From contig JBGSUI010000126.1 of the NCBI GenBank assembly GCA_041736175.1, positions 6,863-70,862 on the forward strand: a DNA stretch of 64,000 bases. The letters run 5' to 3'. The position numbers and the translations under genes are program-made. Position 1 is the stretch's first letter. Each line of letters begins with the position of its first letter. This stretch comes from Oligoflexales bacterium. GTDB taxonomy: Bacteria; Bdellovibrionota_B; Oligoflexia; Oligoflexales; CAIYRB01. The notes under the pieces were generated by a model. It was not told where the DNA came from, searched no databases, and saw nothing but the letters and a program-made list of their open reading frames with translations. Positions 31,513 through 51,346 of this stretch are shown here, piece by piece.

Positions 31513-33455
<1,943 letters not shown>

Positions 33456-33949: not shown

Positions 33950-34834
33950 TTAAAACGCTCGATCATTCCACCTGGGATGTTCTTGCTCTGCCACGGTTTT
34001 TTCGATCCAATCGGCTAAGAACCTTATGTCGACATTGTAGCCATATTGACGACAATTTGGGTCTCCCGAAACGTGGATTCCTGCAAGGGTCAGTCCTACG
34101 TCCTTTCTCTTTATAAAAACCGGGCCACCTGAATCCCCATGACACCCCCCGCGGCCTTCGTAGCGGAAGGTTTTCGATTCAGGGTAAAACTTTGAAATCC
34201 TTTGACTCCAGCCCGTGGAGCGGAGAGTTCCACGAGTCTCATCTGGGGCATCCCAGCTGGTTTTTCCATATCCCGCAAGCAAAATCGTCTCTCCAACCTG
34301 TAGTTCGTCCTTCTGGGTCAGGTAGGGGACAGGTTTGTAGCTCGAAGGTGCATCCTTAACCAAATAAGCGATGGCAACGTCATCATGAGGGGGGCCTATA
34401 ATCGCCTTGCAGTTGATCGACTGGGCTTGGGGATCGTCGAGCCTACGGCCAAAGATGATTTGGCAATCGGTCCCTGCCTTAAAGCAATGTTTGGCCGTAA
34501 GAACGGTTCTTTTTCCCACCAAGGCTCCACTACAGGTTTTCCCTGCACGGACTCTGAGTTCCTTATGATAAACCACTGCGACTGTTGACAAACCAACCTG
34601 GTCATCAACTCCGACGTCACACCCGCCAGCGATCTTTAGGGCCGATCCCAACTGATCTGCGGATTTTCTAGAGACTGACCAGTCACAACTGGGCAGGAAC
34701 AGGATAAAACTCAACAGGTTGGGCATGTAAGATCTGAAGATTTTAGAGAACATTTTAAAGGAACTCCTAGGAGCTGGGAAACCAGGAAATAGTGTAGACA
34801 GGACCACGCTCAGAAATGACCGAGCAAAATCCAT
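33950..34834 (-). CDS. Trypsin-like (S1) serine protease, lipoprotein
   Basis: LTAKHC, DDVAI, CHGDSGGP; lipobox LPSC and K-IAGG activation-like site; true start may be 34753 or 34726. Confidence 0.9.
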   Translation of the reverse strand: MDFARSFLSVVLSTLFPGFPAPRSSFKMFSKIFRSYMPNLLSFILFLPSCDWSVSRKSADQLGSALKIAGGCDVGVDDQVGLSTVAVVYHKELRVRAGKTCSGALVGKRTVLTAKHCFKAGTDCQIIFGRRLDDPQAQSINCKAIIGPPHDDVAIAYLVKDAPSSYKPVPYLTQKDELQVGETILLAGYGKTSWDAPDETRGTLRSTGWSQRISKFYPESKTFRYEGRGGCHGDSGGPVFIKRKDVGLTLAGIHVSGDPNCRQYGYNVDIRFLADWIEKTVAEQEHPRWNDRAF

Positions 34835-34956
34835 TCCAAAAAGCTAAGGAGGCGAAGGAAAGTCGGGCTCCCGAGCTATTTCCTGGTCCAGACCAAGCAA
34901 CTTGAGGTAGGGTCGGTGTCGGAACTGTCTTAGTTGCCCCCTATAGGAGACCGACC

Positions 34957-35385
34957 ATGCCTGCTACCATGACCATTACCCGAACTTTTGAGTTTTGCGC
35001 AGGTCACCGGCTTTTTCGACCCGATTGGTCCGAAGAAAAAAATAAGCAGATCTTTGGTTTGTGCGCGAATCTCGAAGGCCACGGACACAACTACACCCTC
35101 GAGGTGAGTGTCTCCGGTCCTATCGATCGAGAGACTGGGATGATCATGAATCTCAGGGAGCTTAAGGAGATCGTCAAAGACCATGTGATCGCTCAGATCG
35201 ACCACAAAAATCTCAATAAAGACGTATCCTGGATGGCGGGGGTTAACCCGACCACCGAAGAATTTGCAGAAAAAATCGGCCAGCGGCTTCGGGAGCTGTT
35301 ACAAAAAAAAGTACCACAAGTTAAGCTTGCTGCCATCGTTTTGCATGAAACAACCAACAACAAGGTGATGATCCAATGGCAGTAG
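34957..35385 (+). CDS. 6-pyruvoyl-tetrahydropterin synthase family protein (CX5HGH, PTPS-II type)
   Basis: FCAGHRL, CANLEGHGHNY, ETGMIMNL, DHKNLN, PTTEE, LHET. Confidence 0.9.
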   Translation: MPATMTITRTFEFCAGHRLFRPDWSEEKNKQIFGLCANLEGHGHNYTLEVSVSGPIDRETGMIMNLRELKEIVKDHVIAQIDHKNLNKDVSWMAGVNPTTEEFAEKIGQRLRELLQKKVPQVKLAAIVLHETTNNKVMIQWQ

Positions 35386-36212
35386 AACATCCTCTGGGAG
35401 GTCCCCACACCGACGCCAACCTAAGCCGCGACTTAACCCACTTCTACGGAGTCCAAGGCTTGGTAGCCCTCGTCACAGGTGGTGGAACGGGTATCGGACA
35501 AGCTTCGGTGATGGTCTTGGCTAAAGCGGGGGCGAAGAAACTTTTTATCGCTGGGCGACGCCTAGGACCGCTGCAGGAGACGGCGGCCCGCGTCAAAGAG
35601 GTGAGACCGTCCTGTGAGGTGGAAGTCATCGAATGCGATCTTGCCCAGAGCGCATCAGTAGCCGCACTCGTCCTAAAAATAAAAAAGTATGGTCAACTTG
35701 ATATCCTCGTCAACAATGCGGGGCAATTCCAATCAGCATCCTTAGGGGCCACCACCGACGCCCTTTGGGAAGAGACCCTTAGGATCAATCTCCAGGCTCC
35801 CATGGGCCTTACGCGGGATCTACTACCCCTCTTAAAGCGCTCTGATGCGCCGGCAGTGGTCAATATCAGCTCCACCTTGGCGGTGAAACCAATCCCAGAG
35901 GCGTCCGCTTACAATGCCAGTAAGGCTGCCTTGGTGCAGTTGACCCGGTCCCTAGCCCTGGAGCTTGCCCCCGATGGAATACGGGTCAATACAATCCTTC
36001 CCGCCGTTGTCGAGACTCCCATGTACCGGGGACGCTACGACAACGAGACCACCTACCAGGAAGGGGTTCGGCAGGCCAACAGGCTCCATCCTCTCGGACG
36101 CATGGGGCAGCCCGAAGACATCGGCATGTCGGTTCTGTTTCTCGCCAGCCGGGCATCGAGTTGGATTACTGGAGTTGCTTTACCTGTAGATGGCGGGATG
36201 TTGGTCACTTAA
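35376..36212 (+). CDS. Short-chain dehydrogenase/reductase (SDR)
   Basis: TGGGTGIG, NNAG, NISS, YNASK; start overlaps the PTPS stop. Confidence 0.92.
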   Translation: MAVEHPLGGPHTDANLSRDLTHFYGVQGLVALVTGGGTGIGQASVMVLAKAGAKKLFIAGRRLGPLQETAARVKEVRPSCEVEVIECDLAQSASVAALVLKIKKYGQLDILVNNAGQFQSASLGATTDALWEETLRINLQAPMGLTRDLLPLLKRSDAPAVVNISSTLAVKPIPEASAYNASKAALVQLTRSLALELAPDGIRVNTILPAVVETPMYRGRYDNETTYQEGVRQANRLHPLGRMGQPEDIGMSVLFLASRASSWITGVALPVDGGMLVT

Positions 36213-36245
36213 TCTATTTATTTGTAAAGATAATTTAGAAAGATT

Positions 36246-36280
36246 TAGGTAGGGAGTCTGTGTTCATGATGACCTACCTA
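36246..36280. terminator. Inverted repeat between the convergent SDR and toxin-like genes
   Basis: TAGGTAGG-19 nt-CCTACCTA. Confidence 0.3.
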
Positions 36281-36290
36281 GCTATTCCAA

Positions 36291-36623
36291 CTAAGAAACA
36301 ACCGATGAAATAATTTCTTTTTGTAAACCTGCGTCTCTGATATAGCCACACTTATTGATTAAGTGATTGACAGGCACAGTTACCAAGAAGTCTGTCCAAG
36401 CATATGAGTCATACTGCAGGCAAAGTAGCTGACTCTTCTTAATCAATACATCTGTCTCTAGTCCACGTTTCATTGTGGAAATGGGTATTAAGTTTAAAAG
36501 GATATTGTTCTTATCATCATAAGTTTCGGAAGATATAACTATGTAAAAATGACTTGGCGGATTTGTTTTATCAGCAGGAATGAAAGTATTTATTTTATAA
36601 ACACACCATTTTAAGGCAGACAT
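36291..36623 (-). CDS. PemK/MazF-like putative toxin
   Basis: 110 aa; pattern HFYIVISS..YD...LLNLIPIST...DVLI...DSYAWTDFLVTV...L...GYI resembles the MazF/PemK fold; AT-rich. Confidence 0.55.
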   Translation of the reverse strand: MSALKWCVYKINTFIPADKTNPPSHFYIVISSETYDDKNNILLNLIPISTMKRGLETDVLIKKSQLLCLQYDSYAWTDFLVTVPVNHLINKCGYIRDAGLQKEIISSVVS

Positions 36624-36901
36624 TGAATAGCTATGATTTCATTTGTTAAATCAGATTGACCGTTACTTACTCGATTGGATCTATTTTTAATCTGCACTTC
36701 ATCTTTGACAGAGTGGTAATAGTTTTCTATAGCTTCGAATTCAGATACATTTGGGTAAACACTGATAGCAGTTTCCGTTACTTTATTAAAATCAGATTGT
36801 CCTATTCTCTTGAAGAATAGATCAATTCTTTCTATCTTTTTCATATTGGCCTCGATTCCAGGAGTTTTGTAATCTATTTGTTTTGCTGTTGAGTCGACCA
36901 T
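36611..36901 (-). CDS. Putative antitoxin of unrecognised family
   Basis: 96 aa, AAGGAG RBS, stop overlaps the toxin-like gene start by 13 nt; AT-rich. Confidence 0.5.
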   Translation of the reverse strand: MVDSTAKQIDYKTPGIEANMKKIERIDLFFKRIGQSDFNKVTETAISVYPNVSEFEAIENYYHSVKDEVQIKNRSNRVSNGQSDLTNEIIAIQCLP

Positions 36902-49432: not shown

Positions 49433-51295
49433 TTACAGAACGCTCCCCAACATTCCCAGCCCTTGCCCCACCAGCCATGGGGTATCCCCCGAGGATGTGG
49501 CAAAATCTTGGACCAGCCTCTGGCGCAAAGTGTTTAGCCTTTCCTTGAACGCAGGATCGATCGTCTTAAGGGGGGTTTTGCGGAAATGCCACACCGCCAA
49601 ATCCAGGGCATCAAGTCGTAGAAGCCACTCTTCAGGAAACTCCCAGGACAGGAGTTCCGCCTTTAGGAGTGCGGTTTCTAAGGTATCGGTTTCGTGCTCC
49701 CTGCTATCACGGAGCTCCTGATAAGCTGCAAAGGAAGCGACTTCTACCGGGCTATAGGGGGAGGTGCGGGCTGGGGAGGTGGATGCTGTCCCCATCTCAA
49801 ACATTCCAAAGTCTGAGGGATCACTGGGACCACCTGCGACGGATAAGATCGACTCGCCCACGGCCCAGTCAAAGTCACCCCAATCAGGCTGAAAGTAAAC
49901 ACGGCCTGATTTTGTAACGGTGCATCTCTTCCACTTCATCACCAAGATTTGGTCTTTATCCCCACGCACGACTTGGACCAGCTCTCCTTCGATCTGAAAG
50001 CCCGACGTGAGACGAAGGGTTGCAAACTCACCTTTATAAAGGCCCAATTGCGCTAGGTCCCCGTCGCTGAGGGTGGCAAGGGGCCGGTCGATACGGGCAG
50101 CGGCTCTGCCCAAGACGGTGCTAAAACCCTGGGGGTGTTGGGAGACTCCCTGTCCTGCCAGGATTTGGCCTTGGTAGGCAAGCTGGCTGGGGCCACGCCA
50201 CCGAACCCACTCGACCCTGCCACGCTCCCCTTGTGGGGCGGAGGCTCCAGTGTCGTCAGTGATCATGTCGTCGATGATGCCGGAGATTTCGACACCAGAG
50301 TCAAGGATGGTGGTGGTGACGGTTCCTGCGTTGTGCCCCTCTTTAAGGGCATAGACGCCGCCCCGTTTGTAGGCCAGGGTGGCTTCAAACTCTTCAAGAA
50401 CCTGTTTAAGGTGGCTGATGCTGTCGGCCACAAATAGCTGGGGTTGGGGCTCGGTGATATCGTAGGCCTGATCCACACAGGCGACGGAAAGCCGGATTTT
50501 TGCTACTTTTGGACTGAGACAGTTTTGACTTTCTCGCACCGACGAAAGAAGGCCGGCTCCATAGATCTTTGGCTCGGTGAGGGAACCGAGGAGGCCGTAT
50601 TCAACGGTCCACCAGTTCATACGGGTCACCTTGGCTGCCTCGGACGTGGTGGTGATCTTTGCCGTCGCTGCCTTAAGGGCAGACTCCGCCTGGGCGATCT
50701 GCTCCCTCGTGGAATCCGTGTTTTCCTTAAGATCCGAGAGGATTCGGATCGCCTCATAGAGTTGGAGATCACTGTGGCTTAAAATGGCTTTTTTGGCCAT
50801 GGAGGCATAGCGAGTGAGATAGTCGGAGTAGTCCTGATCGGCGAGGATCGGGGCATGTCCTGCGGCCTCATGGACGATGTCCGGTGCAGGGGTGTAGCCC
50901 ACGTGGTCGATGGAGCGCATATCGTAGGCTATGGGAAGGATTCTGAGGGATTGAAATTCTAAAAACGCAGCAGGAGGGATAAATCCACAGACCGGCACAG
51001 CACCCCAGCCGAGATCGCGGAGTTTGGAGTCCATGTCTTTGATCATGGGAATACGATCTGTAGTGACCCCCGTTTGAGCGAGCCCCGCTATGTAAACAGG
51101 GACGGCATAGTCTTTAAAATAAGCCCGGTTTTGGCGCATGATATAGCGCCAAACGGCATGATCTCTCGGTGTGTAGCGATCGTCGTTTTGTTCGACCACG
51201 TATTTGTGCAGATAGTCAGGAAGTCCTTCAAGGGTTGGGTTCAAATTCCACCTCACAGGTTGATTCTGCCGTTTGTGATATGATAAGCGTCTCAT
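49433..51295 (-). CDS. phhA: Aromatic amino acid (phenylalanine) 4-hydroxylase, long form
   Basis: YTPAPDIVHEAAGHAP (2 His), WWTVEYGL (Glu), KIYGAGLLSS; about 300-aa C-terminal extension. Confidence 0.9.
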   Translation of the reverse strand: MRRLSYHKRQNQPVRWNLNPTLEGLPDYLHKYVVEQNDDRYTPRDHAVWRYIMRQNRAYFKDYAVPVYIAGLAQTGVTTDRIPMIKDMDSKLRDLGWGAVPVCGFIPPAAFLEFQSLRILPIAYDMRSIDHVGYTPAPDIVHEAAGHAPILADQDYSDYLTRYASMAKKAILSHSDLQLYEAIRILSDLKENTDSTREQIAQAESALKAATAKITTTSEAAKVTRMNWWTVEYGLLGSLTEPKIYGAGLLSSVRESQNCLSPKVAKIRLSVACVDQAYDITEPQPQLFVADSISHLKQVLEEFEATLAYKRGGVYALKEGHNAGTVTTTILDSGVEISGIIDDMITDDTGASAPQGERGRVEWVRWRGPSQLAYQGQILAGQGVSQHPQGFSTVLGRAAARIDRPLATLSDGDLAQLGLYKGEFATLRLTSGFQIEGELVQVVRGDKDQILVMKWKRCTVTKSGRVYFQPDWGDFDWAVGESILSVAGGPSDPSDFGMFEMGTASTSPARTSPYSPVEVASFAAYQELRDSREHETDTLETALLKAELLSWEFPEEWLLRLDALDLAVWHFRKTPLKTIDPAFKERLNTLRQRLVQDFATSSGDTPWLVGQGLGMLGSVL

Positions 51296-51346
51296 ACCGT
51301 AAAAAAAACTCGACAACACTTTTAGACTGGGGGAGCACTCGTTCAC

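Follow-up and report, generated by a model that had tools for sequence, protein, structure and literature searches.

The locus described here raises the question of which pterin is made by two overlapping genes of an Oligoflexales bacterium, and which enzyme makes use of it. Within the window, i.e. the whole analysed stretch of 64,000 nucleotides (positions 6863-70862 of contig C182, in an assembly of 6.08 Mb, 264 contigs and 91.6% completeness), a putative PTPS-II type 6-pyruvoyl-tetrahydropterin synthase (PTPS) of 142 aa is encoded at 34957-35385 on the + strand. It is followed at 35376-36212 (+) by the gene for a classical short-chain dehydrogenase/reductase (SDR) of 278 aa, a predicted 6-pyruvoyl-tetrahydropterin (sepiapterin-type) reductase. 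We assume, with a probability of about 0.65, that this pair is a dedicated branch of a tetrahydrobiopterin (BH4)-type cofactor pathway that supplies an aromatic amino acid hydroxylase; a long-form, pterin-dependent enzyme of this kind (620 aa from its ATG) is encoded in the same window at 49433-51295 (-). The ATG of the SDR gene (35376-35378) lies inside the PTPS gene, which ends with a TAG stop at 35383-35385, and the 10 nt shared by both open reading frames (ORFs), ATGGCAGTAG (35376-35385, +), suggest translational coupling. Both ORFs, including the C-ANLEG-HGH motif of the PTPS and the SDR start at 35376 in overlap with the PTPS stop, had been pointed out in the initial annotation of this DNA and were confirmed.

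The PTPS scores 107 bits against Pfam family PF01242 (cut-off 22.4), a model that does not tell the PTPS subfamilies apart. These subfamilies of COG0720 are separated by published motifs, namely CxxxxxHGH for PTPS-II, CxxxHGH for PTPS-I (QueD) and ExxHGH for PTPS-III (PMC5041015; also PMC5445326). The window protein reads FGL-C36-ANLEG-H42-G-H44-NY, corresponding to CX5HGH, and by the published motifs fits PTPS-II only. The initial annotation had taken this spacing for the animal-like biopterin type, in agreement with the published PTPS-II motif (PMC5041015) and with the solved relatives of the protein: the best ones are the PTPS of rat (1b66, E 1e-28) and of man (3i2b, 7e-28), and QueD structures are far weaker matches (Pseudomonas 6e-8, E. 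coli 4e-6). The zinc ligands H23/H48/H50 and the catalytic residues C42/D88/H89/E133 of the rat enzyme align to H17/H42/H44 and C36/D82/H83/E131, and all seven residues, together with G43, are invariant among 16 homologues of 44-79% identity (alignment A1). A further protein with PTPS similarity is encoded elsewhere in the genome (contig C96, 9406-10377, +; 323 aa) and consists of two PTPS-like halves. The N-terminal half has kept LDH and lacks HGH; the C-terminal half reads C-QRLF-HGH, i.e. CX4HGH, a spacing termed 'PTPS-II-like' (PMC5445326), and a queC context was not seen.

The second protein of the pair matches the Pfam models adh_short and adh_short_C2 with 170-186 bits and carries the motifs T34GGGTGIG41 and N113-N114-A115-G116 as well as N138/S166/Y179/K183, all of which are conserved in alignment A2; by these features it is to be regarded as a classical SDR. 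A GRR stands after strand beta-2, which among SDRs suggests an enzyme of the NADPH type. The AlphaFold2 model (pLDDT 89) has a Rossmann fold and finds its best fold matches in NADPH ketoreductases. The orthologue group comprises about 55 clusters of at least 248 bits and 253-284 aa, below which the scores drop to about 200 bits with generic proteins of 246 aa. As judged by sequence, the SDR thus belongs to a sharply delimited orthologue clade of its own, apart from the PTPS-linked SDRs of other phyla. The long N-terminus is retained in the nearest relatives (278-284 aa, 65-93% identity), and this argues for a start at the ATG of 35376. Most likely, the protein is a reductase of the side chain of 6-pyruvoyl-tetrahydropterin, a prediction that draws on the gene order in relatives.

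For this comparison 60 GTDB genomes were sampled (61 with the genome of the window itself), of which 12 belong to the family of the window and 49 to 15 other families of the order. Four metagenome contigs reached through PTPS homologues of 62-76% identity encode a long Biopterin_H protein (571-594 aa), then PTPS, then SDR, and the same order hydroxylase-PTPS-SDR was present in three of three long contigs reached through SDR orthologues. In the family genomes with enough flanking sequence the three genes are contiguous and co-directional in 8/8 cases. Taken together, every related contig whose flanks are long enough shows this contiguous, co-directional order (13 of 13), five of them from metagenomes and eight from GTDB genomes of the family (contigs of the same record were removed; two are apparently duplicates). 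Wherever a family genome has its PTPS locus intact (nine genomes), the SDR gene is the direct neighbour of the PTPS gene on the same strand, and among the seven related contigs with gene calls six show an overlap of 4 nt between PTPS stop and SDR start, the seventh having a 3-nt gap. This arrangement is not due to chance. The pairing of PTPS and SDR that the initial annotation had seen at one locus is therefore conserved in all relatives examined, and it extends to an immediately upstream pterin-dependent hydroxylase, which the initial annotation had not noticed.

In most relatives (nine loci) a sigma-54 response-regulator gene and then a FolB-family gene flank the operon; in the genome of the window this second pair is located on a separate contig (C219:46132-48178). 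An activator of the sigma-54 type encoded next to the operon would allow a regulatory link, by analogy to PhhR. Because the operon of the relatives adjoins such a gene, sigma-54 promoters (TGGCAC-N5-TTGC, at most two mismatches) were sought before the PTPS and hydroxylase genes, with 24 matches versus 31 expected by chance and none suitably placed. A gene of the fatty-acid-hydroxylase family (PF04116; L091:232-1065) lies two genes ahead of the hydroxylase in one close relative, a single case. PF04116 is the superfamily of the BH4-dependent alkylglycerol monooxygenase.

The hydroxylase of the window (PF00351; ORF open to a GTG at 51346) scores 614.5 bits on NCBIfam NF010657 (PRK14056, 'aromatic amino acid hydroxylase'; cut-off 346) and aligns over about 550 residues (E 1e-120) with PDB entry 7vgm, a protein of 592 aa deposited as 'phenylalanine-4-hydroxylase'. 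In this alignment the HEAAGH, WWTVEYGL and YGAGLLSS motifs are intact and the 2-His-1-Glu iron site is present. A domain resembling pterin-4a-carbinolamine dehydratase (PCD) was not found in the C-terminal 297 residues by Pfam at E values up to 10. Of the 61 genomes, 54 encode the long hydroxylase, including 12/12 of the family, and PTPS-II occurs in 11 of the 12 family genomes and in 1/49 genomes of the other families. Since the hydroxylase is nearly order-wide and PTPS-SDR is confined to one family and one outlier, PTPS-SDR is a family-specific cofactor-supply add-on to an older enzyme. Outside the family, the gene of the long hydroxylase has other neighbours, with no PTPS, SDR or FolB nearby; a class-III aminotransferase and, in one family, a hydroxyphenylpyruvate dioxygenase are found instead. 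These neighbours fit phenylalanine/tyrosine catabolism, and the long enzyme is probably a phenylalanine hydroxylase that feeds this catabolism. The genome of the window has two Biopterin_H genes, the long form and a short form of 337 aa on contig C6, and the short enzyme may be a second consumer of the pterin. Within C6:3357-7163 (-), the gene of the short enzyme is followed co-directionally by genes for a pyridoxal-phosphate-dependent group II decarboxylase (522 aa, PF00282) and an FAD monooxygenase (427 aa). Biogenic amines of the serotonin or dopamine type are made in this way, by a hydroxylase and then a decarboxylase.

The pathway that we propose would start with GTP cyclohydrolase I (FolE), which is present in the genome (C156:4064-4804, 246 aa) and would provide 7,8-dihydroneopterin triphosphate. 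PTPS-II, with zinc bound by H17/H42/H44 and with C36, D82, H83 and E131 as catalytic residues, would strip the triphosphate and rearrange the remainder to 6-pyruvoyl-tetrahydropterin. The unstable diketo side chain of this compound would then be reduced to a dihydroxypropyl group by the coupled, NADPH-dependent SDR, giving BH4 or a stereoisomer. Finally, the long hydroxylase, and perhaps also the short enzyme on C6, would use this pterin as an electron-donating cofactor. The basis of this scheme is the family membership and the intact catalytic residues of the three enzymes, their conserved operon linkage and the lack of QueC; what the SDR and the hydroxylase act on, the use of NADPH by the SDR and the stereochemical form of the product are inferred. 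The initial annotation had proposed a two-gene unit for BH4 or a related pterin. This proposal is largely supported by the PTPS-II type, the synteny and the absence of QueC; the part that concerns the SDR stays a prediction.

Several observations weigh against this scheme. The PTPS reaches 86.6 bits on NCBIfam model TIGR00039 and is thus below the cut-off of 125.5; this model, too, does not discriminate between the subfamilies. The SDR scores 57.1 bits on the model TIGR01500 for animal and fungal sepiapterin reductase (cut-off 206.55), and the best match to this model anywhere in the genome is 60.2 bits. However, none of 14 control genomes passes TIGR01500, the BH4 producer Synechococcus elongatus included, so that the failure says little on function in bacteria. 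Evidently, the bacterial enzymes for the sepiapterin-reductase step fall outside TIGR01500, and the window SDR is not a canonical sepiapterin reductase, as had been anticipated when it was first described as a non-canonical one. By sequence and by fold it resembles a generic ketoreductase: its high-ranking solved relatives in both searches are only generic ketoreductases, 17-beta-HSD14 and FabG-like enzymes, and sepiapterin reductase, PTR1 and dihydropteridine reductase (DHPR), which were sought, are not among the high-ranking matches. As generic ketoreductases top both searches, the substrate is not decided by sequence or fold. The SDR clade was assigned by sequence and gene context. In the genome of the window the hydroxylase gene is unlinked from the pair, 13 kb downstream and on the opposite strand. 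Because the window SDR is 51-57% identical to the operon SDRs of relatives and the window hydroxylase 53-58% identical to the hydroxylases that directly precede PTPS-SDR there, this genome carries a rearranged version of the operon. The long hydroxylase occurs in 42 of the 49 genomes of other families, all of them except the one outlier without PTPS-II, and the enzyme is therefore not strictly dependent on the pathway. PCD (PF01329) was found in 0/12 family genomes; the half of a biopterin/hydroxylase system that usually takes care of recycling is missing.

This last finding leads to a different assignment of the SDR, namely as a reductase of the pterin ring. The enzyme would then be a quinonoid dihydropteridine reductase or FolM/PTR1-like and would recycle the cofactor, while the side chain would be reduced by an unlinked carbonyl or aldo-keto reductase. 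With neither PCD nor a recognisable recycling gene in any of the 12 family genomes, a recycling activity is needed, and the operon holds the consumer enzyme, where recycling matters. Known dihydropteridine and pteridine reductases are likewise SDRs, and the NCBIfam pteridine reductase model gives the window SDR 156 bits, under its cut-off of 288. Yet the start of the SDR gene overlaps the stop of the PTPS gene and not that of the hydroxylase gene, and if the SDR reduced the ring, no reductase would be left for the PTPS product. 6-Pyruvoyl-tetrahydropterin is unstable and requires an immediate reductase. PTPS-SDR pairs are moreover found in many phyla with no hydroxylase nearby, and structures of DHPR, PTR1 or FolM are absent from the 50 best fold matches and the 60 best sequence matches. 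We therefore consider a ring reductase unlikely. Just as doubtful, at this stage, is the conjecture that one bifunctional FabG-like SDR clade performs both the reduction of the side-chain diketone and the regeneration of the quinonoid or dihydro ring, so that the pterin system of this Oligoflexia family would be self-contained without PCD; an order-wide long hydroxylase that uses another pterin elsewhere would then have acquired the module, amounting to a natural cofactor switch.

The biopterin-type pterin of the pair could also have its main role elsewhere than as hydroxylase cofactor, namely as a redox protectant, a light-related pterin or a compound to be glycosylated, which has been proposed for cyanobacteria and green sulfur bacteria. 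In favour of this, a hydroxylase does not adjoin most of the bacterial PTPS-II/FolE/SDR clusters, pterin glycosides of unclear function are found in cyanobacteria and Chlorobium (PMC3546692), and most of the order has the long hydroxylase without PTPS-II. In the genome of the window, FolE is directly followed by the gene for a BLUF blue-light sensor protein of 141 aa (both within C156:3620-4804, -), which is also in favour. Against it speak the 13 of 13 family contigs in which the pair is part of a hydroxylase operon and the fact that a glycosyltransferase gene is not consistently adjacent, being seen in one contig only and about 5 kb away; we rate a mainly non-cofactor role as improbable, somewhat more so than a ring reductase. 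By far the least probable reading takes the PTPS homologue for the 6-carboxy-tetrahydropterin synthase QueD of queuosine synthesis, or else for a PTPS-III serving as a bypass of FolB in the folate pathway; the SDR would then be an unrelated neighbour. Its close homologues are indeed named '6-carboxytetrahydropterin synthase' by NCBI pipelines, the QueD model TIGR03367 gives a sub-threshold match of 70.9 bits (cut-off 89.25), and similarity to rat PTPS alone may indicate the wrong paralogue, as in the case of Synechococcus (PMC5041015). The motif, however, is CX5HGH and neither CX3HGH nor EX2HGH. QueC was not found in the genome of the window, where the only matches were PP-loops of 21 bits inside ORFs of 416-532 aa, nor in any of the 12 family genomes, where PP-loop matches reached at most 28 bits, in ORFs of 416-726 aa only. 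The absence of QueC from the whole family argues against QueD, and a QueD next to queCE elsewhere in the genome, named by the initial annotation as a finding that would overturn it, was not encountered. A FolB homologue, the sole one in the genome, is present on contig C219 (75.8 bits), so that no folate bypass is required, and the glutamate motif of PTPS-III is absent, E40 being displaced by one residue from the position that EX2HGH requires and varying among orthologues; PTPS-III was rejected on these two grounds. As far as sequence can tell, both QueD and PTPS-III are largely refuted, and the BH4-type branch for the hydroxylase is the reading that we prefer.

The surroundings of the pair can be summarised as follows. 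An AGGAG ribosome-binding site (34945-34949, +) is read 7 nt before the ATG of the PTPS gene, and an AAGGTGA Shine-Dalgarno-like site for the SDR (35362-35368, +) within the 3' end of the PTPS gene. A promoter and terminator scan of 34600-36500 gave counts no higher than those of shuffled sequence. With GC contents of 0.48 and 0.57 the pair is like its neighbouring genes. A recent foreign insertion of PTPS-SDR was considered and rejected, since the GC content equals that of the surroundings, unlike that of an AT-rich two-gene insert downstream. This insert, directly after the SDR gene (36291-36901, -), consists of two small overlapping ORFs of 110 and 96 aa with a GC content of 0.33-0.34 versus 0.48-0.57 around them and no Pfam match, and looks like an inserted toxin-antitoxin-like pair. 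Glutathione-dependent detoxification of formaldehyde is represented upstream (31513-33452, -) by two genes, one for a class III alcohol dehydrogenase (669 bits on TIGR02818) and one for an S-formylglutathione hydrolase (320 bits on TIGR02821).

Bacterial PTPS-II has been described, as have its motif and the way it clusters with genes of the BH4 pathway (PMC5041015, PMC5445326), and such clusters recur in many phyla. In the literature we found no description of the hydroxylase-PTPS-SDR operon of this Oligoflexia family, of the window SDR clade as a candidate reductase or of a family-wide absence of PCD. Few bacteria are known to make BH4, and the purpose of bacterial biopterins is often unclear. 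The gene order in the relatives links the PTPS-II/SDR pair directly to a pterin-dependent hydroxylase and thus offers a concrete, testable role for the pterin, and it puts forward a new SDR clade as candidate for the bacterial counterpart of sepiapterin reductase. The microbial production of hydroxylated aromatic amino acids is limited by cofactor supply, a need addressed in PMC10354952 and PMC11885754, and a compact two-gene BH4 module could aid such production. A family without PCD and an order-wide hydroxylase without PTPS-II also raise the questions of how the cofactor is recycled and which pterin is used in the other families.

Among known systems, QueD and PTPS-III share with the window PTPS the T-fold, the PF01242 domain and dihydroneopterin triphosphate as substrate; CX5HGH in place of CX3HGH or EX2HGH, the missing queC/queE context and the presence of FolB set it apart. 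The resemblance to the animal de novo BH4 pathway, which consists of GTP cyclohydrolase I, PTPS (1b66, 3i2b) and sepiapterin reductase, includes the length of PTPS, CX5HGH, the zinc-binding histidine triad and the Cys/Asp/His/Glu set. In both cases the reductase is an SDR, here probably NADPH-dependent, and here too the pterin would be used by an iron-dependent aromatic amino acid hydroxylase. Unlike in animals, the reductase is here no orthologue of sepiapterin reductase and the genes, whose reading frames overlap, are organised as a bacterial operon; PCD was not found, and no dihydropteridine reductase was identified, none having been specifically searched for.

BH4 is produced by bacteria such as Synechococcus PCC 7942, Chlorobium and gut Actinobacteria (PMC5041015, PMC3546692, PMC5227711). 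With such bacterial PTPS-II/BH4 producers the window has in common the PTPS subfamily and the clustering of PTPS with a reductase. In contrast to the PTPS-FolE-SDR clusters of many phyla, FolE is unlinked here, the partner is the long hydroxylase, and there is no glycosyltransferase. In 80 loci from other phyla, PTPS-II adjoins FolE in about 55 and has an SDR near it in about 28, so PTPS and a reductase are generally associated. The window SDR is 26-33% identical to the SDRs of PTPS-FolE-SDR loci and falls in a different cluster at 40% identity; the SDRs near PTPS-II in other phyla form at least two further clusters at this level, which suggests that PTPS-II recruited different SDR lineages more than once. 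Six loci of other phyla have two SDR genes in tandem instead of one, both from one cluster; these come after PTPS-FolE in five of the loci, and FolE is missing from the sixth. When the SDR of one PTPS-FolE-SDR cluster was compared with the PDB, Chlorobium sepiapterin reductase was not in the best 60 matches.

A second bacterial solution is the phenylalanine hydroxylase (PAH) system of Pseudomonas and E. coli. Pribat and colleagues reportedly described it in 2010 in J Bacteriol as a phhA-phhB system, phhB being the PCD, with tetrahydromonapterin formed via FolX and the SDR FolM. Both systems combine a bacterial PAH-type hydroxylase with a dedicated unconjugated tetrahydropterin whose synthesis starts from dihydroneopterin triphosphate and ends with an SDR, or in our case would do so, and the sigma-54 activator gene beside the operon in the Oligoflexia relatives recalls PhhR. 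They differ in that a PCD gene is missing here and the hydroxylase has about 590 aa (NF010657), compared with the monomeric enzymes of about 260-300 aa. In addition, PTPS-II takes the place of the FolX epimerase, so that the cofactor would carry a side chain of the biopterin type instead of the monapterin type.

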